A DNA stretch of 64,000 bases, taken from contig JAOASJ010000031.1 in NCBI GenBank assembly GCA_030158725.1, positions 6,504-70,503 of the forward strand. Reading direction: 5' to 3'. Of the stretch, positions 11,679 to 24,532 are shown piece by piece. Made by a program: the position numbers and the translations under genes. The stretch's first letter is position 1. Each line of letters starts with the position of its first letter. Source of the DNA: Bacteroidia bacterium. GTDB taxonomy: Bacteria; Bacteroidota; Bacteroidia; NS11-12g; UBA955. The notes below the pieces were generated by a model, which was not told the DNA's origin, made no database searches, and worked only from the letters and a program-made list of their open reading frames with translations.

Positions 11679-14156
11679 TTACAAAGAATTACTTTTTAAA
11701 TGTTTGTTATTAAAATATTTGATTAGCTCCAATACAAGCAGCATAATACTTGCGCCTAAAATTGAAATAAGAAAGTGATAAGTGCCTGGGTTTTGAAAAC
11801 TAAATAGTATCTGTAAATATGGAATATTAAGCGTTAACAAAAGCATCAAAACTGCGCTAAATATTATGAATATTAAAGATTTGTTGTTCTCTTTTAAAAC
11901 AGAAAAAGCACTTCTGGTTTTAGAGAGATTACTTAATATTAAAAAGATATTTCCAATAATTAAAGCGGAAAAACTAATTGCCCTTGTCTCTAATTCTGAA
12001 TGTCCTTCGTTAATGGTAAACAAATAAACTGTCATAACAAATGCAAGCAATAATCCACCCTGAAAAATACTGCGCAGTATCTTATTGCGACCAAAAAAAG
12101 TGTCATCTAGATTTCTAGGCTTTCTCGTCATAATATCAGCTTCTTCCTTTTCAGATTCAAATGCAATGGAACAAACAGGATCAATAATTAATTCTAAAAA
12201 TACAATATGAACAGGAAGCAATATAATGGGTAGATTTTCGAAAAAAGCAGGAATCAATGACAATCCAATTATTGGTACATGTATGGCCATAATATATGTC
12301 ATAGCTTTTTGAAGGTTGTCATAGATTTTTCGCCCACCTCTGATAGCTGAAACTATAGAAGCAAAATTATCATCTAATAACACTATGGAGGCAGATTCTC
12401 TTGCAACATCCGTACCTCTTAATCCCATGGCAATTCCTATTTGAGCGGCCTTTAATGCTGGTGCATCGTTAACGCCATCTCCAGTCATTGCGACAATATG
12501 GCCTCGCTTCTTAAAAGCATTTACTATCCTAAGCTTTTGTTCAGGAATTACTCTAGCAAATATGCTTACCGTATCAATCACCTGGCTTAATTCATCATCA
12601 TTTAATTCCTTAAGTTCTTCACCAGTCATCATTATGCCATTTTCACTAAGGCCAATTTGATTGCCAATGCTTTTTGCAGTAACTGGAAAATCGCCCGTTA
12701 TCATTACAACCTTTATACCTGCGGTTTTACATTCTTCAAGTGCTGATTTTACTTCAGGTCTAATTGGATCTTCAAATCCTAAAAAACCAAGAAAATTAAA
12801 CTTGAAATCTGTTTGCTTTTCAGGAATTTCGTTGCTTTGCGTTGTTGAATTTGCAACACCAATAACTCTAAGTCCCGCTTCCGCCATTTTTACGATTTCC
12901 TCTTTTAGATTGTCAAGCACTTGGCCCTCAATTTTGCAAAGATTCAATATCGCTTCAGGAGATCCTTTACATGATATATTGAAGGTTTCAGATTCGCCTT
13001 TTGTTACCCGAGTCATAGCAAATAACTCTTTGCTTAATGGATATTCCTTTATTAATTTTTCTTTTTCATAATCAACTTTATACAATTTTGCATGGTTCAA
13101 AATGGCTTGCTCCATTGGATCTATTGGATTAATCTGAGATGCGAGAATGGCCGTATGACAAATAATAGCAACCTCATCACTTTTGGATTCAAAATCAGCT
13201 TTAGAATAAACGATGTCTTTTTGAAATACAGAAACCAACTCCATTTTATTTTGAGTTATAGTACCTGTTTTATCACTGCATAAAACACTGGTTGAACCAA
13301 GTGTTTCAATTGCATTGGCTTGCCTTGATAATACGTTTTTCTTAGATAGTCTCCAAGCGCCTAATGCTAAGAAAACGGTTAGAACAACAGGGAATTCTTC
13401 GGGTAATATTGCCATAGCTGAAGAAAGTCCACTTAACAGTGATTCTATAAAATTCCCTCGAGTTTGATAATATGCGATGACAACAATAACACTTATTAAA
13501 CCTCCAATAATGAAAAGCGTTTTTATCAGTCTTTTCATTTCAAGTTGCAAACGTGTTGCTTCAGGTTTAATATCTTGTAATGAACGGCCTATTTTCCCAA
13601 ATTCTGTGTTGACACCTGTAGCTATAACTTTGGCGTTTGCCTTGCCTTGAATAAGCAAACTTCCACTGTAAATTGGCATACCATTTTCTTTTAAAACAGG
13701 AACAGATTCTCCAGTTAATAGCGATTCGTCAATTGTTAAATGATTAGAATCAATAACAATTGCATCGGCAGAAATTCGATCTCCTTCATTTAGAATCATG
13801 ATGTCATCAATGACAATCTCTCTTGAGGGTACTCGTTTGGTTTTGCCATCCCTTAGCAACAATGTTCTTGGAGAGGATAGTTTTTTTAGAGAATCGAGTG
13901 CTTTTTCGGTTTTTTGACGTTGATAAAAGGTAATAAAAATAATTATGAATATACTAGAAAATAAGATGATACCTTCTCTGTAATCTCCGATAATAAGGTA
14001 TAAACTGCCACATGCCAATAAGAGCATGAACATAGGCTCTTTTATAACACTTAATGCAATTTCAAATACAGATTTTGTTTCTGAATTTGGTAATTCATTG
14101 TATCCACCTTTTTTTAGCTTTTGCTGAGCTTCAACATTCGTCAATCCGATTTCCAT
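11679..14156 (-). CDS. Cation-transporting P-type ATPase (P2-type, Ca2+/Mg2+-like).
   Basis: Phosphorylation motif DKTGTITQN, the TGES motif, MITGD and the hinge TGDGVNDAPALKAAQIGIAMG. 825 aa. Confidence 0.9.
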   Translation of the reverse strand: MEIGLTNVEAQQKLKKGGYNELPNSETKSVFEIALSVIKEPMFMLLLACGSLYLIIGDYREGIILFSSIFIIIFITFYQRQKTEKALDSLKKLSSPRTLLLRDGKTKRVPSREIVIDDIMILNEGDRISADAIVIDSNHLTIDESLLTGESVPVLKENGMPIYSGSLLIQGKANAKVIATGVNTEFGKIGRSLQDIKPEATRLQLEMKRLIKTLFIIGGLISVIVVIAYYQTRGNFIESLLSGLSSAMAILPEEFPVVLTVFLALGAWRLSKKNVLSRQANAIETLGSTSVLCSDKTGTITQNKMELVSVFQKDIVYSKADFESKSDEVAIICHTAILASQINPIDPMEQAILNHAKLYKVDYEKEKLIKEYPLSKELFAMTRVTKGESETFNISCKGSPEAILNLCKIEGQVLDNLKEEIVKMAEAGLRVIGVANSTTQSNEIPEKQTDFKFNFLGFLGFEDPIRPEVKSALEECKTAGIKVVMITGDFPVTAKSIGNQIGLSENGIMMTGEELKELNDDELSQVIDTVSIFARVIPEQKLRIVNAFKKRGHIVAMTGDGVNDAPALKAAQIGIAMGLRGTDVARESASIVLLDDNFASIVSAIRGGRKIYDNLQKAMTYIMAIHVPIIGLSLIPAFFENLPIILLPVHIVFLELIIDPVCSIAFESEKEEADIMTRKPRNLDDTFFGRNKILRSIFQGGLLLAFVMTVYLFTINEGHSELETRAISFSALIIGNIFLILSNLSKTRSAFSVLKENNKSLIFIIFSAVLMLLLTLNIPYLQILFSFQNPGTYHFLISILGASIMLLVLELIKYFNNKHLKSNSL

Positions 14157-14206: not shown

Positions 14207-16363
14207 TTAATAAAAATTCACCACACCAGTCTCAACATCATACAAGCCCCCAACAATTTTTATTTTTCCTATAGATTCTAATTCTGCGATTAATGGACTT
14301 TCTTTTTTAATTCTCTCAATAGTCAATAATACGTTTAATTCAGATACCTTATTTACAAAATCTAGATTTGAACCATTTCTATTAATGGTAAAACTTGTTT
14401 CACTGTCAATAGCGGGTTGTACCTTGTTTAATAAGCTTGTTAAATTCCCTAATTTCACATGGTTGCATGCACCTATTATTGCGCCACATTTAGTATGCCC
14501 AAGAACTACAATAAGCTTAACCCCGATTTCATGAATTCCAAACTCCATACTTCCTAGTATGTCTTCATTTAAGATGTTCCCTGCAATTCGGACGCTAAAA
14601 ATATCACCTAATCCAAGGTCAAAAATATGTTCGGTTGTGGTTCTAGAATCTATGCAACTCAATACAATTGCAAAAGGGTTCTGACCAAATGACGTTGCAT
14701 TGACTTGTTGTTTAAGATATTTTTCAGCCCAATTTCCCTTTACAAATCGATCATTTCCATTTTTTAAAATCTCTAAGATGTCTTCTGGTGACATTCTTTC
14801 TTGTGTCTGTTTGTCCAAAACATCTACAAATTCAATTCGATCTTCTGGATGATAAAGAGACTTAATACCTAAGACGTTTACTTTGATGTTTTTAAGTCCA
14901 CTTACAGTATTCTTGTAGTTGTTAATAATGTCCAATACATCTGGATCTATATAGTCTGAATATGTTGCATCAATTATAACTTTCGAGTCTTCTGGGATAT
15001 TCCATAACGTTTCTTGAATGCTCGCTTTGTTTAAAAATGAAACTTGGTTTGGGAGTTCAAGACGAATTGTTTCATCCAAATGTAAAGTTTCTTTTTTTAG
15101 TACAAATGGATTGTTAAAATTGCTTTTTAATAAATAGAAAATACTAATTCCCAAGCCTATAAGGACTCCTACTAATAAATCAGTAAAAACAATTGCTAAG
15201 ATGGTACATATAAAGGGAATAAATTGATTGTATCCTTTTGAATACATGTCTTTATACAGCTCTACTTTGGTCAGTTTGTAACCTGTTACCAATAGAATTG
15301 ATGCCAATGAAGCCAATGGAATTAGATTTAAAAATGGGCCAAGCAATAGTAAACTAAGCAACAAGAAAATCCCATGAAAAATACTAGATAATTTTGTTTT
15401 ACTACCAGCGTTGATGTTTACTGAACTTCGAACAATAACAGAGGTAATTGGAATCCCACCTATAAATCCTGCAAGCATATTTCCAGCGCCTTGAGCAAGT
15501 AACTCAACATTTGGTGATGCTAGTCGTTTTTCAGGGTCAATATTTTCAACTGCTTCTAAATTTAGTAAGGTTTCAAGTGATGCGACAATGGCAATGGTAA
15601 ATGCGATAATCCAAACATCGTGATTCCCAATTTCTGAAAATTTAGGTAATACCAGTAATTGTTGATACCCTTCAAGTTTAGGAATATTTACAAGATGGGA
15701 CTCGTGAATGTATAAATCAGGTATATAAAGTTTGAAAATCTGATTGAGAAATATGCCTAAAAAGACAACAAATAATGAGGCAGGTAATAGCTGTATGTTT
15801 TTTAATCTGGTCTTGTCCCAATATACCAAAGCAATTAATGATATTATAGAGACAATTATAGCTCCCCAAGAAAAATAATTGAAAATTTGAAGCAGTTCTG
15901 AAAAAGTATTTTCTCCGTCAGATTGAGAAAATGAAAAATCATCCTCCGGGTCTTTGTCATATCCTACAGCATGTGGAATTTGTTTCAAAATAAGAATGAC
16001 GCCAATAGCAGCCAAAAGTCCTTTAATTACATTTGAAGGTATGTAATTGGCAATAAAACCTCCTTTAAAGAGACCTAAAATAATTTGAAAGGCACCAGCC
16101 AAAACAACAGCGAGCAAAAAAGTTTCGAAACTGCCTAGTTTTAATATAGAACTTAACACTATCGCAGATAATCCTGCCGCAGGTCCACTTACACTTGTAT
16201 GAGATTGACTTAAAAAACCAACCACTATCCCTCCAATTATCCCCGAAATTATCCCTGAAAGGAGAGGTGCACCACTTGCTAATGCTACACCCAAACACAG
16301 TGGTAATGCAACAAGAAACACAACCAAACCAGCGGGTAAATCACTTTTAATTTTTTTAAACAT
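14207..16363 (-). CDS. SulP family anion transporter fused to a C-terminal beta-carbonic anhydrase.
   Basis: SulP TM core, then the beta-CA motifs SCIDSR (C-x-D-x-R) and GHTKCGA (H-x-x-C). 718 aa. Confidence 0.85.
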   Translation of the reverse strand: MFKKIKSDLPAGLVVFLVALPLCLGVALASGAPLLSGIISGIIGGIVVGFLSQSHTSVSGPAAGLSAIVLSSILKLGSFETFLLAVVLAGAFQIILGLFKGGFIANYIPSNVIKGLLAAIGVILILKQIPHAVGYDKDPEDDFSFSQSDGENTFSELLQIFNYFSWGAIIVSIISLIALVYWDKTRLKNIQLLPASLFVVFLGIFLNQIFKLYIPDLYIHESHLVNIPKLEGYQQLLVLPKFSEIGNHDVWIIAFTIAIVASLETLLNLEAVENIDPEKRLASPNVELLAQGAGNMLAGFIGGIPITSVIVRSSVNINAGSKTKLSSIFHGIFLLLSLLLLGPFLNLIPLASLASILLVTGYKLTKVELYKDMYSKGYNQFIPFICTILAIVFTDLLVGVLIGLGISIFYLLKSNFNNPFVLKKETLHLDETIRLELPNQVSFLNKASIQETLWNIPEDSKVIIDATYSDYIDPDVLDIINNYKNTVSGLKNIKVNVLGIKSLYHPEDRIEFVDVLDKQTQERMSPEDILEILKNGNDRFVKGNWAEKYLKQQVNATSFGQNPFAIVLSCIDSRTTTEHIFDLGLGDIFSVRIAGNILNEDILGSMEFGIHEIGVKLIVVLGHTKCGAIIGACNHVKLGNLTSLLNKVQPAIDSETSFTINRNGSNLDFVNKVSELNVLLTIERIKKESPLIAELESIGKIKIVGGLYDVETGVVNFY

Positions 16364-16452: not shown

Positions 16453-16872
16453 TTAAGATGTTTTATTCTGACTTTCTTTCCGAAACAACAAAATAAAAGA
16501 CATTACAGATAATGCCAAGGTTATTGGTGTGAATATAATTTTCTCTAAATTACTTTCTGAAAATAAATTACCTATAGTATTAAATATGAAAAGATTTAAA
16601 AGTACTAAGTAGATAAATTTAGCCAAATTACTTGGACATTTTTTTCTAATCACCCCAAGCTCAGATAACACAAAAACAAGAATTAATGCGTTAACAGATA
16701 GTGAAATAGCTTCCATTTTTTGCATGTTTTCAATCGTTTTTATTTTTCCACCCCAAACGATAGAAAATGGAATTACACGAAACAATACCAAAACATGAAA
16801 AACAAAAACAAACAAAAAAGTAATCAAAAAAAGAATGAGTATATTTTTTTTATTCATGTTCAAGTATTTCAT
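16453..16872 (-). CDS. Hypothetical small integral membrane protein.
   Basis: 139 aa with 4 predicted TM helices. No recognisable motif. Confidence 0.35.
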   Translation of the reverse strand: MKYLNMNKKNILILFLITFLFVFVFHVLVLFRVIPFSIVWGGKIKTIENMQKMEAISLSVNALILVFVLSELGVIRKKCPSNLAKFIYLVLLNLFIFNTIGNLFSESNLEKIIFTPITLALSVMSFILLFRKESQNKTS

Positions 16873-16965
16873 TAAACAAAGTTAAGTTTTAGAATTTAAT
16901 TACGATAGATTTAAAATTTTAAATTAATTCAGTTGTTTTCGTTTAAAATTGCAACTTAAATATTT

Positions 16966-17493
16966 TTGATTCTGAATCTTGAGCAACTATATCAAACGCA
17001 TAAAAACTTGGTTTATAATCTTGCGCTAAACTATGTTCAAAATTCTGAAGATGCGGAAGAAATTACCCAAGATGTCTTTTTAACCGTGCACCAATCAATG
17101 TCCAGTTTCAAAGCCCAAGCAAATATTAAAACTTGGATTTACCGTATTACCATTAATAAATCATTGGATTTTTTAAAAGCCAAAAAACGTCAAAAAAGAT
17201 TTAGCAACTTAACTTCTTTGTTCTTTGATAATAGCTCTGAAATAAAACATCAAGAATCTGATTTTAAACATCCTGGAATTATTATGGAGGAAAAAGAAGC
17301 CTTCAAGAAATTGTTCGAAACCATTAATCAATTGCCCGATAATCAAAAGACTGTACTCATTTTATCGAAAATCGAGAATAAATCTCAGAAAGAAATAGCT
17401 GAAATTTTAAATCTCACAGTTAAAGCAGTTGAGTCTTTGTTTCAAAGAGCCAAAAAAAATATTGAAAAAAATTACCCCAACCCAAAGGATTAA
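16966..17493 (+). CDS. RNA polymerase ECF-type sigma-70 factor.
   Basis: Region 2 (LVYNLALNYVQNSEDAEEITQDVFL) and region 4 HTH (LPDNQKTVLILSKIENKSQKEIAEILNLTVKAVESL). The start is TTG as the ORF is drawn. Confidence 0.8.
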   Translation: MILNLEQLYQTHKNLVYNLALNYVQNSEDAEEITQDVFLTVHQSMSSFKAQANIKTWIYRITINKSLDFLKAKKRQKRFSNLTSLFFDNSSEIKHQESDFKHPGIIMEEKEAFKKLFETINQLPDNQKTVLILSKIENKSQKEIAEILNLTVKAVESLFQRAKKNIEKNYPNPKD

Positions 17494-17522
17494 TAAAATA
17501 ACATCGTCTAAATAATTATAAA

Positions 17523-17780
17523 ATGAAACCGTATCATCCAATAGATCGTTTAAGCCAAATTGAGAAAGTGGAAGCGCCAAACCATTTGTTTGAAAAAATA
17601 CAATCAAGAATTGGTAGTCAAAAAACAGAGAATTTTTCAATTGGTATGTCATACGCTATTGCCGCATCAATTGCTTTATTTCTTTGTCTAAACATTAGCC
17701 TTATTGTTTTCAAAGAAAATACGACAAACAAAATGAACTTATTCACCCAGTTGAATTCTAATAACGATCTATACAAATGA
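17523..17780 (+). CDS. Small single-pass membrane protein, a putative anti-sigma factor (CnrY-like in size and topology).
   Basis: 85 aa. Roughly 40 aa of cytoplasmic N-terminus, one TM (AIAASIALFLCLNISLIVF) and a short periplasmic tail. It sits 30 nt downstream of the ECF sigma and its stop overlaps the next gene's start (ATGA). Confidence 0.4.
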   Translation: MKPYHPIDRLSQIEKVEAPNHLFEKIQSRIGSQKTENFSIGMSYAIAASIALFLCLNISLIVFKENTTNKMNLFTQLNSNNDLYK

Positions 17781-18220
17781 ACAAAGTAAAATTACTAACT
17801 GTTGCAGCAATAATATTGCTTTTGTCTAATCTCATTTTAGTGGGTTTTATTTTGAAAAATAAACCTGGCAGGGGTGATGGTCCTAAAGATTATATTATTG
17901 AAAAATTAAATTTTGATGATAAACAAATTGAAGATTATAATGCGTTAATAGAAGCTCATAGATCAGAAATTAGGAAAAATGAAAAAGAAATTCATGCGCT
18001 AAAAAGTACTTTATATGCTGGTTTGAACACCATTAATCAATCGATGAAGGATTCTTTAATGAATCAAATAGCAGCAATTCAAGTTTGTATTGAAGATACC
18101 CATTGCAAACATTTTAAAGATATTCAAAGTTTATGTAAACCTGAACAAATTAAAGCGTTTGATGCTTTGTTGTTGGAAATGTCTGACCTGTTTTCTCCTA
18201 GAAAAAAGCCTAGAAGATAA
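17777..18220 (+). CDS. TM-anchored periplasmic helical protein, a putative periplasmic heavy-metal sensor (CnrX/CpxP-like fold).
   Basis: 147 aa. N-terminal anchor, then a helical domain with LTxxQ-like spacing and clustered His/Cys (EAHRSEI, EIHALK, CIEDTHCKHF). Translationally coupled to the upstream small TM protein. Confidence 0.4.
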   Translation: MNKVKLLTVAAIILLLSNLILVGFILKNKPGRGDGPKDYIIEKLNFDDKQIEDYNALIEAHRSEIRKNEKEIHALKSTLYAGLNTINQSMKDSLMNQIAAIQVCIEDTHCKHFKDIQSLCKPEQIKAFDALLLEMSDLFSPRKKPRR

Positions 18221-18221
18221 A

Positions 18222-18878
18222 ATGAATGTATTGTTTAGATTTATTTCTTTTATAAGTATTTTCATAATTAGTTATTCCTTTGCTACACCGCTTGCAGGTG
18301 TTAAAGTTGTTCTTATTCGTCCACATCAAGCTGATTCAATAAATATTGATGGTTTTAAATGTTACCTTTCTAATATTGTCATATCTGATTCAAACAAAAA
18401 GAAAGACTTAAGTCCAAGTAATTATCATTTATTGGATTTTACCAGTTCTGATACTGCAACACTGTATTTAAGTCCATTCGCTAATGCAAATTTACTTGAA
18501 TTTAATCTGGGACTTGATAGCGTAATCAATACATCTGGGGCTTTGGGAGGTCAATTAGATCCGAGCAACGGTATGTACTGGACTTGGCAAAGCGGCTACA
18601 TCAATTTTAAAATTGAAGGCACCTCTCCACATTGTTTAGCAAGAAACCACGAATTTCAATTTCACGCTGGAGGATATGCCTATCCATACAATGCCCTCAA
18701 TACAATCAATCTTGAACTTATACCCAACAAGGCATTTCATATTGAAATTGACCTAGCACTTTTTTTCAAATTGATTTCTATTCAGAATCTTAACCATGTA
18801 ATGTCGCCTGGTCCTAATGCCATAAAAATCTCCAAAGCCCTGGCATCATGTTTTAAAACAGTAATTGATGAAAAATAA
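18222..18878 (+). CDS. MbnP-like periplasmic copper-binding protein (partner of the MbnH-type peroxidase).
   Basis: Signal peptide. A 218-aa beta-rich protein with conserved Trp/His-bearing segments (GMYWTWQSGY, FQFHAGG). Its start is set at the ATG at 18222, not the track's 18090, to avoid overlapping the upstream gene. Its 3' end overlaps the start of the di-haem peroxidase gene. Confidence 0.45.
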   Translation: MNVLFRFISFISIFIISYSFATPLAGVKVVLIRPHQADSINIDGFKCYLSNIVISDSNKKKDLSPSNYHLLDFTSSDTATLYLSPFANANLLEFNLGLDSVINTSGALGGQLDPSNGMYWTWQSGYINFKIEGTSPHCLARNHEFQFHAGGYAYPYNALNTINLELIPNKAFHIEIDLALFFKLISIQNLNHVMSPGPNAIKISKALASCFKTVIDEK

Positions 18879-19875
18879 AATACTTCTTTTATTACTCTCG
18901 GTTGTTTTCTTGGCTCTCATTTCTATTGATAAACATGAGTCAAGTTTTCCAAAATATTTCCCAAAACCAGTTTATCAATTTGAACAGAATCAAAGCAATG
19001 ATTTGAAAATTGAATTGGGTCGTACTCTATTTTATGACCCCATACTTTCTTTAGATAATACAATTTCATGTGCTTCTTGTCACAATCCTTATAATGCTTT
19101 TGCGCACGTTGACCACAATCTAAGCCATGGTATAAATGACAAAATTGGTAAACGCAATGCGCCTGTATTGTTTAACTTGGCTTGGCATAAATCCTTTATG
19201 TGGGATGGGGCCATCAACCATCTGGATGTTCAAGCCCTTGCTCCAATTTCTCATCCTGATGAAATGGGGGAGACCATGTCAAATGTCTTGCTAAAGTTGA
19301 ATAGAAATCAAATCTACAAACAGCTTTTTTATCAAGCCTACGGTGACTCCCAAATAAACACTGAAAGAACACTTAAATCTATCTCTCAATTTTTATTAAG
19401 TTTAATCAGCTCAAATTCTAAATACGACAGCATGTTGCTTGGTAAAATCCAATTTAATACACAAGAACAAAATGGTTACCGCTTGTTTAAACTGCATTGT
19501 AATTTTTGCCATAAAGAGCCATTGTTCTCTGACTTTTCATTTAAAAATAACGGACTTTCTTTGGATACGAGTTTGAATGACTTTGGACGCTACAGTATTA
19601 GCTTGTTGCCAAATGATTCATTCAAATTCAAAGTGCCTACTTTGCGAAATGTTGAATTTTCTTATCCGTATATGCACGATGGGCGATTTAAAACATTAGC
19701 CCAAGTAATGAACCATTACAATTCAATAGATTTAAAAAATAAAAAAATCTCTACTGAACTACAAAGAAATTTAAATTTAAGCAGCAATGAGAAGGTTGAT
19801 ATTATTGCATTTTTAAGAACTTTAACTGACAAAAAGTTTCTTTTTAACCCCCAACACGCTTACCCTAAAAAATAA
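18865..19875 (+). CDS. Di-haem cytochrome c peroxidase family protein (MbnH/MauG-like).
   Basis: Two CxxCH haem motifs (CASCHNP and CNFCHKEP). CCP family hallmarks RNAPVLFN, WDGA/HDGR, PTLRN. 336 aa with a signal peptide. Confidence 0.8.
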   Translation: MMKNKILLLLLSVVFLALISIDKHESSFPKYFPKPVYQFEQNQSNDLKIELGRTLFYDPILSLDNTISCASCHNPYNAFAHVDHNLSHGINDKIGKRNAPVLFNLAWHKSFMWDGAINHLDVQALAPISHPDEMGETMSNVLLKLNRNQIYKQLFYQAYGDSQINTERTLKSISQFLLSLISSNSKYDSMLLGKIQFNTQEQNGYRLFKLHCNFCHKEPLFSDFSFKNNGLSLDTSLNDFGRYSISLLPNDSFKFKVPTLRNVEFSYPYMHDGRFKTLAQVMNHYNSIDLKNKKISTELQRNLNLSSNEKVDIIAFLRTLTDKKFLFNPQHAYPKK

Positions 19876-19925: not shown

Positions 19926-20786
19926 ATGAGAAAAATATATTTAAGTATAGCCATTGTTACTGTATCTCTATGCAATATAAATGGTCAAACAGTTCCCAAT
20001 TCTAGCTTCGAAACTTGGTCGCAAAATGGACCTTTTGAAACCCCAAACAATTGGAATGTTAGTCCTGCTGCTTCAAAATCAACCGATGCGCACACTGGCA
20101 CTTATTCCTTACAACTTAAAACCGGGATTTTTACCAACCCTCAAACCCAAGCAATTGATACAATACCTGGAATGGCAACAACTGGTCAACAAGGTATGGG
20201 ACCAGGCAATCAAGGAACAAACGGTTACTCTTTTGGGGCTAGACCGGATAGTCTGGTTTTTTGGTACAAATACCAAGCACAAAATAATGATTCGTTTGTT
20301 GTACGCCTTAATTTGACCAAATGGAATTCAGGGGTTAAGGACATGATTTCGGACCTGGTTTTTATAGGTGGAGCGACTATGAAATATACCAGAGTCGCAA
20401 TTGCATTACCTTATTTTTTAAATTCACAACCCGATACTGCAACCATACAGATAATTAGCAGTCTTAGTCCTAGAGAAAATTTAATTTTGGGTTCTACATT
20501 ATTGATTGACGATATTGGTTTTATTAGCAACAGCAGTGCGGTAGAACAAAACACAATTAACAATAATGTTCAGGTTTCAATTTACCCAAATCCGTTTAAC
20601 AATTCATTCACTATTGCCAATTTTAACAGTGACAATATCAAACTAATAGACATCTTTGGTGCTTTAGTTTTAGAACAAAACACGCGCAACATTGAAACTA
20701 TTGATATTTCAACATCTTCATTAGCTCCAGGTATCTACTTTATAGTATTGAATGATGGTGTTTACCACAAAATAATAAAAGAATAA
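19926..20786 (+). CDS. Secreted protein of unknown function with a T9SS type-A C-terminal sorting domain.
   Basis: Signal peptide. C-terminal roughly 80 aa match the Por_Secre_tail pattern (VSIYPNPFNNSFTI...APGIYFIVLNDG). The stop is directly adjacent to the multicopper oxidase start. Confidence 0.6.
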   Translation: MRKIYLSIAIVTVSLCNINGQTVPNSSFETWSQNGPFETPNNWNVSPAASKSTDAHTGTYSLQLKTGIFTNPQTQAIDTIPGMATTGQQGMGPGNQGTNGYSFGARPDSLVFWYKYQAQNNDSFVVRLNLTKWNSGVKDMISDLVFIGGATMKYTRVAIALPYFLNSQPDTATIQIISSLSPRENLILGSTLLIDDIGFISNSSAVEQNTINNNVQVSIYPNPFNNSFTIANFNSDNIKLIDIFGALVLEQNTRNIETIDISTSSLAPGIYFIVLNDGVYHKIIKE

Positions 20787-22517
20787 ATGAAAATAAAATC
20801 ACTTTTCACCTTAATAGCATTGATTGCATGGAAGTTGTCAAATGCCCAATACAACCAATTATGGATTCCTGATACTTTGACTGGGACAAATTTTAACTTG
20901 ACCATCAAAGATACTTTTGCCCAAATATGTAATACAGGGAATCAAACAATAACAGGTGGGATTAATGGGAAGTTTTGGGGACCTACTTTGTTCTTTAAAA
21001 AAGGAGAGGTGGTGCATTTAAATGTGAAGAATAATTTAAATGATTCAACAACCATACATTGGCATGGCATGCATTTACCTGCGGTGATGGATGGCGGTCC
21101 TCATCAAGTTATTCCTCCAGGAGCTCTTTGGCAACCATATTGGAAAGTTGCAAATAATGCGTCAACGTATTGGTACCACCCACATTTACACGAAATGACC
21201 ATGGAGCATATAAGCAAGGGTATTGGTGGATTGATTATCGTAAGAGATAGCATTGAATCGTCTTTGAGTTTACCAAGGACTTATGGACTAGATGATATTC
21301 CAATGGTTTTGACCGACAGAGATATTAATTCTTCCAATCAATTTGATTTGGTGCCTTATGGCGACAGTTGTTTGGTAAACATGACTCTTAGAGCACAATA
21401 TACAGTGCCAACTCAGGTCGTACGCTTTCGTTTGTTAAATGCCGCTATTGAGCGTTCATTTAACATTGGTTTTAGCGACAATAGAACTTTTTATGTTATT
21501 GGTTCTGATGGAGGCTTGTTAAATGCTCCAGTTCCTCTAACCCGTTACTTATTGCATGCAGGTGAAAGAATTGAAATATTGGTAGACTTCAAAGGTCAAT
21601 CAACATCAATCGACATTAAAGCATTTAATTCAACCCTCGGAAATGCAATTCCGGGTGGCGAGAATTTCCCAAATGGTCCTTTTGCAAATGCTTTGGGAAA
21701 GAAAGACTTTGTCATGCTGCATTTGAATTTTAAATCGGCGACCAACAATGCAATTACTAGTATTCCTACTGTTTTAACCAATAATATACTTTTGAAATCA
21801 GCAGATGCTCAAATAACAAGAGCTCTAACAATGACAGATAGTGCGGGTGTTCCAGGAACTTTGGGCCCAAATACCTTTATAATTAACCACAGATTATTTA
21901 AACTAAACTATATTGATTACCAAGTGCCATTAAACAATACAGAAATTTGGCAGATCACAAATTCCACTGCTTTTGGGCACCCATTCCATATCCATGACGT
22001 TGAATTTAATATTATCAGTGTAAATGGAGCCGCACCATCAGCAGCTCAAGCTGGCTGGAAAGATGTGGTTTTTGTGCCTGGCGCAAGTGGAGGAGGACCA
22101 GGTGGTGGAGGTACGCCTTACGTAATTAAATTTATTGCAAAATTTGATGATTATGCAGACGCCCTTCATCCATTTATGTACCACTGTCACATTTCGTTGC
22201 ATGAAGATGAAGGAATGATGGGACAGTTTGTAGTAACTGATCCATCAAATAAAATTAACACCAATGAGAATCTTACATCATTTTCATTGTTTCCAAATCC
22301 AGCAAACCAAACACTTTATTTCAAGTTTAATAACAGCAATCAAAATGTTTATTATGTGAGAATAGTTGATGCCTTAGGTAGAACAATTATGATGTTGCCT
22401 GCCCCAGAATTAAATAAGGGCATTGATATTTCACAATTAATTCCAGGTGTTTATTCAGTTATACTTACAGATGGAGATTCAAAAAAAGTAAGCATTCAAA
22501 ATTTCGTTAAGGAGTAA
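20787..22517 (+). CDS. Multicopper oxidase (laccase/CueO-like) with a T9SS type-A C-terminal domain.
   Basis: Copper-binding motifs HWHGMH, HPHLH, HPFHIHD and HCHISLHEDEGMMGQF. C-terminal FSLFPNPANQTLYF...PGVYSVILTDG. 576 aa. Confidence 0.85.
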   Translation: MKIKSLFTLIALIAWKLSNAQYNQLWIPDTLTGTNFNLTIKDTFAQICNTGNQTITGGINGKFWGPTLFFKKGEVVHLNVKNNLNDSTTIHWHGMHLPAVMDGGPHQVIPPGALWQPYWKVANNASTYWYHPHLHEMTMEHISKGIGGLIIVRDSIESSLSLPRTYGLDDIPMVLTDRDINSSNQFDLVPYGDSCLVNMTLRAQYTVPTQVVRFRLLNAAIERSFNIGFSDNRTFYVIGSDGGLLNAPVPLTRYLLHAGERIEILVDFKGQSTSIDIKAFNSTLGNAIPGGENFPNGPFANALGKKDFVMLHLNFKSATNNAITSIPTVLTNNILLKSADAQITRALTMTDSAGVPGTLGPNTFIINHRLFKLNYIDYQVPLNNTEIWQITNSTAFGHPFHIHDVEFNIISVNGAAPSAAQAGWKDVVFVPGASGGGPGGGGTPYVIKFIAKFDDYADALHPFMYHCHISLHEDEGMMGQFVVTDPSNKINTNENLTSFSLFPNPANQTLYFKFNNSNQNVYYVRIVDALGRTIMMLPAPELNKGIDISQLIPGVYSVILTDGDSKKVSIQNFVKE

Positions 22518-22576: not shown

Positions 22577-23926
22577 ATGAAAATCTCTAGCCTTTTAATC
22601 GCACTTGTTTTTACAACACTTGCAAATGCACAAACCAATCCGATAATTACCTCATGGTTGCAGAATACCACTGGAATTCTTGGTAGACATTATGTAAATG
22701 GAAATTCTACTCCAATTAACGATGCCGATACCGCCAATGTTATGTCGGTTTCATATTCGAGTAATTGGGTTTACATCAGAACCAACGGTGTGCCTTCTTA
22801 TATTACAGGTCCATTTTTAGATGGCAATCCTTCAATCACCACTGCTCAAAAAGCCATTTTTAAATTGAGTTTAAACCCTGCAAAAAATACAGGCACATTA
22901 ACGAATACTACAGGTGGAAATATTGGATTGTTTATAAATGGTGTTGCTTTGTTTGACTACCGAGACGGTGTTTCTTGGAGCAATGCAAACAACGCTTTAA
23001 AAGGTGGTCCTTTGGGAGGAATGGGCGATAATGTTTGGAACCGTGATGCGGTTGTGGCTGAAAGAAAGGGTTTCGATTGCGCGAAAGGCCATCCTGCAAT
23101 GGGCAATTACCACCACCATCAAAATCCTAGTGCTTTTAATCTTGATCAGAATGTGGTTTCAACCATTTGTAACTTATACAATGCTGATGGATTATATGTT
23201 ATAGATTCAACAAAACATTCGCCACTTATTGGTTTTTCTTACGATGGATTTCCAATCTACGGCGCTTATGCATATAAAAATGCGGATGGAACAGGTGGAA
23301 TTGTTCGCATGAAATCTGCTTACAAATACAGAAATATCACAACAAGAACTACTTATTCTAACGGAAGTAATGTAACTGCAGGTCCTGTTGTTTCAAGCAC
23401 ATATCCACTTGGTTACTTTAGAGAAGATTATGAATTTGTGGCAGGAACGGGTGATGATATACTTGATGTTCACAATGGCCGTTTTTGCGTTACCCCTGAA
23501 TACCCGAATGGTATATATTGTTATTTTGCAACTGTTGACGCTAATTGGAATTCTGCATATCCCTATGCTGTTGGTCCAACTTTCTATGGGGTTAAAAATG
23601 CTGTAAAAGTTACTGCGATTAGTGAGCCAGTCACAATTTATAAGTCCAATAATACCGGTGTTGAATCTTTCATTCAAGAGATGAATATTAGCATTTACCC
23701 GAACCCTACGAGCGATTTATTGGCAGTTCAATGCAATGAAATCAACCGCGAGAACATCAATGTTGAATTGTACGATTTTACTGGCAAATTGGTTCAGTCT
23801 TGTGTTTTATTACAAGGCAGTACCATCGCGTATTTCGATACCCAAACATTGTATGCGGGTCAATATATAGTGAAAATTAATACCACTTCAAAGGTATATA
23901 CCCGTAACATAAGCATTGTTAAATAA
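22577..23926 (+). CDS. YHYH family protein with a T9SS type-A C-terminal domain.
   Basis: Signature GHPAMGNYHHHQNP and a YDGFPIYG segment. C-terminal ISIYPNPTSDLLAV...AGQYIVKINT sorting domain. 449 aa. Confidence 0.7.
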   Translation: MKISSLLIALVFTTLANAQTNPIITSWLQNTTGILGRHYVNGNSTPINDADTANVMSVSYSSNWVYIRTNGVPSYITGPFLDGNPSITTAQKAIFKLSLNPAKNTGTLTNTTGGNIGLFINGVALFDYRDGVSWSNANNALKGGPLGGMGDNVWNRDAVVAERKGFDCAKGHPAMGNYHHHQNPSAFNLDQNVVSTICNLYNADGLYVIDSTKHSPLIGFSYDGFPIYGAYAYKNADGTGGIVRMKSAYKYRNITTRTTYSNGSNVTAGPVVSSTYPLGYFREDYEFVAGTGDDILDVHNGRFCVTPEYPNGIYCYFATVDANWNSAYPYAVGPTFYGVKNAVKVTAISEPVTIYKSNNTGVESFIQEMNISIYPNPTSDLLAVQCNEINRENINVELYDFTGKLVQSCVLLQGSTIAYFDTQTLYAGQYIVKINTTSKVYTRNISIVK

Positions 23927-23932
23927 TGTGAT

Positions 23933-24532
23933 ATGTTAAAATTATCATCACGTTTTTCATTATTGCTTATAACCACTTTAGTCTTCGGTTTTATCAATGA
24001 GACGCCTCAATCCATCAATGATTTTACACTCAAAAACATTGATGGAAAAATGGTTTCACTAAGCAATTATAAAGAGGCTAGGGGTTTTATTATTGTATTT
24101 ACTTGCAACCATTGTCCATTCGCAAAACTATATCCTGAGCGCTTTAACCAATTGAATTTAAAGTACAAGCCATTGGGTGTCCCATTGCTCGCAATAAGTT
24201 CAACGGATACAATACTATATATCGAAGACACTTATTCAAAAATGGTAAAAAAAGCAAAAAAGGAAAAGTTTAATTTCCCCTACCTATTTGATGGAGAGCA
24301 AACAGTAGCTAAGAATTTTTCTGCACAAAAAACACCTCATGCTTATGTGGTTTGGAAAGAAAATAATAAATGGGTTGTTAAATACGATGGGGCAATAGAT
24401 GATAATGGCAACAATCCTGAAAAGGTCAGCAAACACTTTGTTGCTGATGCGGTAGATTCATTGCTGTTGAATAAGTCAGTGGCAATCCGACAAACTAAAT
24501 CAATTGGTTGTCAAATTCTATTTAGAAAATAG
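23933..24532 (+). CDS. Thioredoxin-fold (redoxin/AhpC-TSA-like) thiol-disulfide oxidoreductase.
   Basis: Signal/anchor sequence. CxxC motif in FIIVFTCNHCPFAKLY. 199 aa. It is the last gene of the same-strand run. Confidence 0.6.
   Translation: MLKLSSRFSLLLITTLVFGFINETPQSINDFTLKNIDGKMVSLSNYKEARGFIIVFTCNHCPFAKLYPERFNQLNLKYKPLGVPLLAISSTDTILYIEDTYSKMVKKAKKEKFNFPYLFDGEQTVAKNFSAQKTPHAYVVWKENNKWVVKYDGAIDDNGNNPEKVSKHFVADAVDSLLLNKSVAIRQTKSIGCQILFRK

Follow-up and report, generated by a model that had tools for sequence, protein, structure and literature searches.

Here we describe a three-gene module in a 64,000-nucleotide stretch of DNA from a genome labelled Bacteroidia bacterium (Bacteroidota; Bacteroidia; NS11-12g; UBA955; GenBank assembly GCA_030158725.1, contig JAOASJ010000031.1, positions 6,504 to 70,503 of the forward strand), the whole of which is referred to below as the window. 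The module, at positions 16966 to 18220 of the window, encodes a 175-residue sigma factor of the extracytoplasmic function (ECF) type, a single-pass membrane protein of 85 residues and a membrane-anchored periplasmic protein of 147 residues, the putative sensor. We consider it on balance probable that this triad is a membrane signalling module that works like the CnrYXH system of Cupriavidus metallidurans but is built from different parts, with copper as the most likely ligand. The triad is real, widespread and uncharacterised, yet it is neither a new principle nor an orthologue of Cnr.

The three co-directional open reading frames (ORFs), at 16966-17493, 17523-17780 and 17777-18220 on the forward strand, open a tight gene cluster. 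The ATG of the sensor gene (17777-17779) overlaps the TGA of the 85-residue ORF (17778-17780) as ATGA, and the ATG of the next gene, which encodes an MbnP-family protein, lies at 18222, 1 nt past the sensor stop codon, with genes for MbnH and a multicopper oxidase (MCO) after it. The original prediction, made from the letters of the window, had described an operon opening with a 175-residue ECF sigma factor, followed by an 85-residue protein with an N-terminus of roughly 40 residues, one membrane helix and a short tail, and by a 147-residue protein containing the strings EAHRSEI, EIHALK and CIEDTHCKHF; it had also pointed to translational coupling of the last two genes and to a location directly upstream of MbnPH and MCO genes. 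This description of the locus holds in every part.

Related loci from genome and metagenome collections were compared by tblastn and ORF calling, and cover about 15 independent lineages in the Chitinophagales, Sphingobacteriia, Flavobacteriales (including Crocinitomicaceae) and other Bacteroidia. The order sigma factor, small transmembrane (TM) protein and sensor is found in 14 of the 15, often with overlapping start and stop codons; locus L010 lacks the sigma gene. This recurrence argues that the three are not chance ORFs. Across the sampled triads the sensor proteins have 143-167 residues, and all triads examined have, between the genes for sigma factor and sensor, one that encodes 85-114 residues.

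Copper-type genes lie directly downstream of the triad in 10 of the 15 lineages, down to 38% sensor identity. The arrangement MbnP-MbnH-(MCO)-YHYH-(redoxin) is present in the window, L001-L004, L011-L016 and L018, and among these related loci the MbnP gene directly follows the sensor gene in most cases. In L017 the same genes occur with YHYH first and MbnP after it, while an MCO gene lies downstream in L005 and a gene for a MauG-like enzyme in L006. A redoxin homologue is also present in L001-L003, L011 and L012. In one large clade, the regulatory module is wired to MbnPH, YHYH and MCO genes. The triad is also kept at loci without copper genes, which argues that it is a regulatory rather than a structural unit.

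The evidence for a CnrX-like sensor comes first from structure prediction. The AlphaFold2 model of the 147-residue protein, built on 16 close homologues (mean predicted local distance difference test (pLDDT) score of 84.9), contains a TM helix at residues 3-27 and further helices at 36-44, 48-81, 88-119 and 122-138, and so combines a TM anchor with a four-helix hooked-hairpin periplasmic domain, as in CnrX. In a Foldseek search against the PDB, the 15 best matches of the model are all CnrX or NccX entries, with a probability of 1.00. For 2y3d_A the TM-score normalised on the target is 0.77, with a root-mean-square deviation (rmsd) of 3.3 Å over 107 columns; the rmsd is 2.6-3.5 Å for the entries of the soluble CnrX domain and 15 Å for the full-length NccX entry. 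After CnrX and NccX come a Salmonella VirG-like protein, CpxP (rank 29, E=0.66) and ZraP (rank 47, 3lay). The anchored hairpin bundle with CnrX at the head of its matches agrees with the fold originally proposed for this protein. Its N-terminus carries a 21-residue hydrophobic helix, in which an obvious cleavage site was not seen on reading the sequence. A cleaved signal peptide was considered, and was rejected in view of this hydrophobic stretch, the invariant Asn inside it, and the coverage of the segment by the family profile PF13801, as in CnrX.

An exhaustive search with a profile of the sensor family retrieves 3192 cluster representatives at E≤1e-3; with the stricter E≤1e-10 the number is 1380. 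Among 63 diverse relatives, the Metal_resist family (PF13801, gathering score 29.2 bits) is matched by 18 (E≤0.01) and LTXXQ (PF07813) by five. Four relatives with 36-44% identity (P0209, P0188, P0191 and P0197) score 32-41 bits on PF13801 over the whole profile including the TM anchor, and two of them (P0209 and P0188) lie in loci that encode the sigma factor, small protein and sensor followed by MbnP-MbnH-YHYH. CnrX itself (148 residues; query sequence identical to PDB 2y39) scores 91 bits on the same profile. These matches suggest that the 147-residue family belongs distantly to the CnrX Pfam family PF13801, by transitivity only. The 147-residue protein of the window matches LTXXQ with E=0.0038 and 18.3 bits (cut-off 24.3) over positions 2-99 of the 100 in the profile.

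Conservation in the sensor was counted in 209 family sequences. Q50 is present in all 209, H112, F113 and Q124 in 208 each, H61 and C120 in 207 each, N18, which lies inside the TM helix, in 206, and E106 in 205; position 109 is His in 173 and Asn in 28. Q50 and Q124 are the Gln residues of two LTXXQ-like motifs (FDxxQ, here FDDKQ, and CKPEQ) and tie the family to the CpxP/Spy/ZraP/CnrX superfamily, while H61, E106, H109 (in most members), H112-F113 and C120 form the signature of the sensor family. In the alignment with CnrX, for which hhalign and an independent MAFFT run give the same register, H119 of CnrX aligns with H112 and the CnrX segment LKPEH aligns with LCKPEQ. H61 occupies a core heptad position of helix 2, and in helix 3 one core position after another is taken by Q102, E106, H109 and H112; C120 is placed at the turn between helices 3 and 4. 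The core heptad positions suggest a polar site that is buried and lies roughly one turn from that of CnrX. The clustered Cys residues to which the original prediction had drawn attention, C104 and C110, were also considered as a metal site, and were rejected as a feature of the close clade only, with position 110 usually Tyr or Phe and position 104 variable. The only family-wide Cys is C120.

The 85-residue protein (17523..17780), as read from its sequence, has about 38 N-terminal residues, followed by a hydrophobic helix (about 39-63) and a tail of 22 residues. Its AlphaFold2 model (pLDDT 74) has a helix at 6-11 and a second at 20-83 that runs into the TM segment. In an alignment of 19 homologues, which are only 16-29% identical outside the close clade, the N-terminal segment of about 35 residues keeps the motif L..LsqIkkVeaP..Lf.kI..rI. 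The TM helix keeps a polar residue, which is Asn in most members (N57 here) and Glu or Gln in one subclade, and the C-terminus keeps NNxLY, in which conservation of N81 and Y84 is 90% or more. As modelled, two short cytoplasmic helices, a TM helix and a short conserved periplasmic tail match the layout of CnrY, and by this analogy we infer that the protein is an anti-sigma factor. If so, it would be an ultra-short one and not of class I: class I anti-sigma factors have cytoplasmic domains of about 50-100 residues that are recognised by profiles, and the 85-residue protein has no such domain. Its sole match is a weak one to DUF3379, at positions 44-104, corresponding to the pre-TM helix and the TM helix.

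The sigma factor (16966..17493, with an uncertain TTG start) matches Sigma70_r2 (1e-17) and Sigma70_r4_2 (1.2e-15) in Pfam and passes the general ECF model TIGR02937 (2e-29, 102 bits against a cut-off of 42.9). The best specific NCBIfam model is the Bacteroidetes-type TIGR02985, with 113 bits, below its cut-off of 126. Among solved structures, AlgU, RpoE and SigW are the closest in sequence (69-60 bits), and CnrH (4cxf_A) follows at rank 11 with 42 bits. Judged by these scores, the sigma factor is RpoE/AlgU/SigW-like and not of the CnrH group.

In the mechanism that we propose, the N-terminus of the small protein would sequester the sigma factor, while the 147-residue protein, held by its one TM anchor, would expose its CnrX-fold helical domain in the periplasm. 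Contact between the small protein and the sensor would be made within the membrane by the Asn that each conserves in its TM helix (N18 of the sensor and N57 of the small protein), and in the periplasm by docking of the NNxLY tail on the sensor. The buried polar set of H61 (helix 2), E106, H109 and H112 (helix 3) and C120 (turn) would bind the ligand, most likely copper given the recurrent copper-gene neighbourhood. Ligand binding would change the contact between sensor and anti-sigma factor, so that the sigma factor is freed or re-captured, and the sigma factor would in turn set the expression of its own operon, including the MbnP-MbnH, MCO, YHYH and redoxin genes. In CnrYX, TM-TM contacts are combined with docking of the CnrY tail in the CnrX dimer (PMC6851896), and the fit of the NNxLY tail and of the polar residues in both TM helices to these published contacts lends indirect support to an anti-sigma/sensor contact, as does the translational coupling of their genes. 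We infer, in sum, the binding of sigma and anti-sigma factor, the sensor/anti-sigma contact, copper as ligand and a response to its excess or shortage; as for the direction of that response, MbnPH suggests acquisition, whereas the CueO-like oxidase suggests detoxification.

A number of results weigh against this reading. The E-value of the Foldseek match is 0.017, and helical hairpins match easily; because E-values of this order (∼0.02) are modest, the fold match alone would not prove homology. The 147-residue protein itself has no PF13801 match at E≤1 and reaches no Pfam threshold, and neither phmmer nor two profile searches with its family retrieved CnrX, CpxP, Spy or ZraP from the PDB. An hhalign comparison of the family with the single CnrX sequence, although co-linear over 123 columns, gives E=0.032 and a probability of 1.6%. 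The link between sensor and CnrX rests on the fold search and the transitive Pfam hits. Public annotation labels relatives as 'CpxP/Spy' or 'hypothetical', the name used by the Joint Genome Institute (JGI) being 'periplasmic protein CpxP/Spy'. Four of the five CnrX ligands are not kept, with H42, H46, E63 and M123 replaced by K37, I41, I58 and I116, and at its binding site the 147-residue protein is no orthologue of CnrX. Within the set proposed here, the distance between C120 and H61 is probably too great for both to belong to a single site. For the 85-residue protein there is no relative in the PDB, and the profile of its 19 homologues misses CnrY (4cxf) at E≤10; no Pfam or NCBIfam anti-sigma family is matched (zf-HC2, RskA and RseA-like class I families included), and its cytoplasmic part of about 35 residues is shorter than the 45 residues of CnrY. 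In five lineages (L007-L009, L010, L019 and L020) a copper gene is not adjacent to the triad, and the conserved residues are the same. Finally, an ECF-type promoter (AAC...CGT) was not identified upstream of the triad in 15 loci inspected by eye.

Some of these points could be explained if the 147-residue protein were a tethered chaperone or stress modulator of the CpxP/Spy type that reports general envelope or folding stress to the small anti-sigma factor, as CpxP does to CpxA, with its His, Glu and Cys residues having a structural role and the copper genes being one of several outputs. We judge this unlikely. The weak Pfam match of the protein is indeed to LTXXQ, the CpxP/Spy family, over almost the whole profile, both LTXXQ-like motifs are kept with their invariant Q50 and Q124, and the JGI label points the same way; however, PF13801 matches outnumber LTXXQ matches 18 to 5 among the relatives, and CnrX ranks far above CpxP and ZraP in the structural search. 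The replacement of most CnrX metal ligands would suit such a chaperone, but near-invariant His/Glu/His/Cys at core heptad positions would be unusual for a purely structural role. Likewise, the RpoE-like sigma factor is of the envelope-stress type and the copper genes are not beside the triad in five of the 15 lineages, whereas MbnP, MbnH and YHYH stay coupled to the triad down to 38% sensor identity.

A second possibility, which we regard as quite unlikely, is that the triad senses a signal other than copper, such as zinc, nickel or a redox change at C120, and that the copper-gene context of one clade does not reveal the ligand. A redox switch could be provided by the one invariant Cys in the periplasm, triads keep an identical set of conserved residues whether or not copper genes are present, and outer-membrane proteins resembling TonB-dependent receptors lie beside the triad in L008, L017 and L020. 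Against these stands the neighbourhood as a whole, in which MbnP, MbnH and MCO, in 10 of the 15 lineages, are the only recurrent functional theme. Quite unlikely as well is a role of the 147-residue protein as an output, namely a ZraP-like metal-binding protein or chaperone that buffers copper or hands it over to MbnP or the oxidase, with the sigma factor controlled by the 85-residue protein alone or by an unlinked factor: PF13801 and its relatives do include metal-binding chaperones (ZraP, 3lay, is among the structural matches), metal-type residues are conserved and the sensor gene touches the MbnP gene that directly follows it, but the protein remains with the sigma factor and small protein at loci that lack a nearby copper gene (L007-L009, L019 and L020), is translationally coupled to the small protein and not to MbnP in most loci, has the sensor CnrX and not ZraP as its best structural match, and carries an invariant TM Asn that pairs with the polar TM residue of the small protein, suggesting a heteromeric membrane complex.

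The reading of the triad as a copper-responsive signalling module can be set against several known systems. CnrYXH (ECF291, responsive to Ni and Co) likewise consists of a sigma factor of the ECF type, an anti-sigma factor (putative in the triad) that is very short and crosses the membrane once, and an anchored periplasmic sensor of about 148 residues. The sensors have the same fold and, by transitivity, a common Pfam family, the ligand position H119 of CnrX corresponds to H112, the LKPE turn motif is common to both, and the tail of the 85-residue protein could dock on its sensor as the short periplasmic tail of CnrY does. The metal ligands of CnrX are H42, H46, E63 and H119, plus M123 as the signalling ligand (PMC6851896); apart from H119 these are replaced in the triad sensor, which has its own set of H61, E106, H109, H112 and C120. 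The genes of the Cnr system are ordered Y-X-H, with CnrY at position -2 relative to CnrH (PMC7826278), whereas the Bacteroidota triad is sigma-first, a difference that the original prediction had noted correctly. The sigma factors are CnrH-like and RpoE-like, respectively, CnrY and the 85-residue protein have no sequence similarity and differ in the length of their cytoplasmic parts (45 and about 35 residues), and the output is RND-type (resistance-nodulation-division) efflux (cnrCBA) in one case and the MbnPH, MCO, YHYH and redoxin genes, in the phylum Bacteroidota, in the other. The Cnr paradigm that had been proposed for the triad is supported in part: the sensor's fold and family and the copper-gene context stand, whereas orthology to Cnr, the identity of the ligand and homology of the anti-sigma factor do not.

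The gene order of the triad has precedents. In ECF281 and ECF290 the sigma factor (position 0) is followed by an anti-sigma factor (+1) and a PF13801 'heavy-metal resistance' protein (+2) (PMC7826278), and the same order is found in the Azospirillum RpoE8 operon. The ECF281 and ECF290 groups derive from the CnrH-like ECF20 and have zinc-finger or RskA-like class I anti-sigma factors, whereas the +1 protein of the triad has no recognisable anti-sigma domain and its sigma factor is RpoE-like. In ECF241, 68% of which is from Bacteroidetes, the partner gives a PF13801 match in some cases, and its N-terminus is not long enough to hold an anti-sigma domain of normal size (PMC7826278). There, a single protein spans the membrane twice and is proposed to carry a FecR-like anti-sigma domain at its C-terminus, and the sigma factor belongs to the FecI clade; the triad instead has two separate single-pass proteins. 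The wiring of a Cnr-type mechanism to copper handling is less of a novelty than first suggested: its copper-gene link is conserved in distant Bacteroidota, but its order is already described for ECF281 and ECF290, and PF13801-like proteins already accompany ECF241.

CpxP, Spy and ZraP share the helical-hairpin superfamily and the two LTXXQ-like motifs with the 147-residue protein, but they are soluble and act on two-component histidine kinases, whereas the 147-residue protein has a TM anchor, goes with an ECF sigma factor and is closer to CnrX in structure. CpxP and ZraP feed back on signalling systems. In methanobactin operons, an ECF-type sigma/anti-sigma pair is encoded beside the MbnP and MbnH genes, as part of the FecIRA-like MbnIRT regulation; MbnI and MbnR are of the FecI and FecR type and signal through a TonB-dependent transporter. 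The triad differs in having neither a FecR domain nor a transporter and in the CnrX fold of its sensor. In the literature, we found nothing on the Bacteroidota triad or its link to MbnPH, nor on MbnP or MbnH together with sigma factors or Bacteroidetes.

The remaining genes of the cluster are all on the forward strand. The MbnP-family periplasmic copper-binding protein (18222..18878; PF20243, 6.6e-36) carries the motif YWTWQ. Its frame in a mechanical ORF list reaches back to a TTG at 18090, which would give a 131-nt overlap with the sensor gene; the ATG at 18222 fits the Pfam match and the homologues better and is the probable start. The partner of MbnP, an MbnH/MauG-like di-haem enzyme, follows (18865..19875; CCP_MauG, 2.4e-52; the MbnH model TIGR04039, 1.4e-60, below its cut-off). 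Next are a 286-residue secreted protein with a C-terminal sorting domain of the type IX secretion system (T9SS) (19926..20786; Por_Secre_tail, 2.7e-14) and a CueO-like MCO, also with a T9SS sorting domain (20787..22517; Cu-oxidase_3, 4.8e-30; Cu-oxidase_2, 1.3e-19; Por_Secre_tail, 7.8e-10), which matches the CueO model NF008205 with 4e-104, below its cut-off. A YHYH-domain protein with a T9SS sorting domain (22577..23926; PF14240, 5.9e-58) and, last in the cluster, an anchored thiol-disulfide oxidoreductase of the AhpC/TSA or ResA-like type (23933..24532; AhpC-TSA, 2.2e-16; Redoxin, 1.4e-10) complete the set. The widest intergenic gap in the cluster is 59 nt. No terminator-like site was found at any gene boundary of the cluster; the two sites detected both lie within coding sequence, and are fewer than in shuffled sequence. 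With gaps of at most 59 nt and no boundary terminators, the cluster from the sigma factor to the redoxin looks like one operon.

The content of this cluster varies among the related loci. The 286-residue T9SS-tailed protein is intact in L004, reduced to a 34-residue remnant in L001 and missing from L002 and L003, which also lack the MCO gene. A YHYH protein with a T9SS tail occurs together with MbnP in every locus that extends long enough downstream, and is more constant than the oxidase; MbnH was called in all loci with MbnP and YHYH except L015. We found nothing in the literature that links the uncharacterised YHYH domain (PF14240) to copper. Large outer-membrane proteins of the CarboxypepD_reg plus OMP_b-brl_3 type adjoin the triad in three distant loci, L008 (5011-7356), L017 (1-2626) and L020 (2170-5031), assigned by Pfam in L017 and L020 and from the translated N-terminus only in L008. 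Of these loci, L008 and L020 are without MbnP, and the outer-membrane proteins may represent an alternative output, for example a metal uptake receptor.

Three ORFs on the reverse strand precede the triad in the window. The nearest (16453-16872) encodes a multi-pass membrane protein of 139 residues without a Pfam match, and lies between the sigma gene and a 718-residue ORF (14207-16363) that reads as a SulP-type anion transporter with a C-terminal beta-carbonic-anhydrase-like domain. The translation of the latter contains CxDSR and HxxC motifs, and is 85-93% conserved in the near-identical loci L001-L004, where the 139-residue ORF has no match and the distance between the SulP and sigma genes is about 220-270 nt. 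Two genes upstream, beyond the SulP gene, lies an ORF for an 825-residue P-type ATPase of the Ca/Mg type (11679-14156), in the translation of which the CPx copper motif was not seen. A homologue with 54% identity is encoded in the distant locus L007 (2-2272), where a single gene and a distance of about 1 kb separate it from the triad downstream; L007 has no copper genes. The ATPase upstream of the triad in both the window and L007 may be a coincidence or a second recurrent neighbour.

Upstream of the sigma gene, a conserved box (TTTAAAATTGCAAC, 16942..16955, forward strand) ends 10 nt before the start codon. In an alignment of the upstream regions of the window and L001-L004, this box, TTTAAAATTGCAMC, is the sole invariant block. 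It may be a Bacteroidetes-type -7 promoter element (TAnnTTTG-like), in which case the leader would be very short. A CGT(C/T)TAAA element is present upstream in the window, L007, L008 and L017, for which a consistent -35 partner was not found, and a scan for the sigma-70 consensus gave 38 matches, compared with 38 in shuffled sequence. The start codon of the sigma gene varies among close relatives: it is TTG at 16966 in the window and a TTG two codons later in L001-L003, where the window has CTG. In L004, the region equivalent to 16966-17010 of the window has no ATG, GTG or TTG, and the nearest candidates are ATT or CTG. The region is nevertheless coding, since its amino-acid sequence LEQLYQTHKNLVYNLAL is conserved with distant loci. 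The unstable start codon and the box 10 nt upstream suggest that the sigma mRNA is near-leaderless with a non-canonical start.

Comparison of the window with L001-L004 also shows a mosaic pattern, with the small protein and the sensor diverging more rapidly than the proteins encoded around them. L003 is 60% identical to the window in the small protein and 62% in the sensor, compared with 82% in the sigma factor, 86% in MbnH and 93% in SulP. The small protein is 84% identical in L004 but the sensor only 58%, while in L001 the small protein is 73% identical but the sensor 99%. Such identities suggest that the two membrane proteins have undergone recombination or are under diversifying selection.

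A class I anti-sigma domain accompanies only 6% of Bacteroidetes ECF sigma factors, and other anti-sigma classes may dominate in the phylum (Casas-Pastor et al., PMC7406223). The triad is a concrete candidate for such control outside class I, and a conserved triad with a sensor family of thousands of cluster representatives would fill part of this acknowledged gap in ECF regulation. With three small proteins and only a few invariant residues, it is also a well-delimited module that lends itself to testing. A broader proposal, which we put forward tentatively, is that the proteins of 85-114 residues constitute a new class of ultra-short membrane anti-sigma factors widespread in Bacteroidota, that together with CnrX-fold co-sensors carrying their own His/Glu/His/Cys site they are the missing regulator of many RpoE-like ECF sigma factors of this phylum, and that within one large clade they make up the first ECF pathway for sensing copper in the periplasm, in control of copper handling by MbnPH, YHYH and MCO. 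Copper sensing by ECF systems is known mainly from the cytoplasmic CorE-type sigma factors and CarR (PMC6851896), and a periplasmic CnrX-fold copper sensor, if this is true, would be a different solution. For MbnP, MbnH and YHYH it would also be the first handle on regulation outside methanotrophs, and it would be the first for copper proteins secreted by the T9SS. Should the ligand be something other than copper, the family would still show how the binding site of the CnrX scaffold can shift along the helical hairpin.

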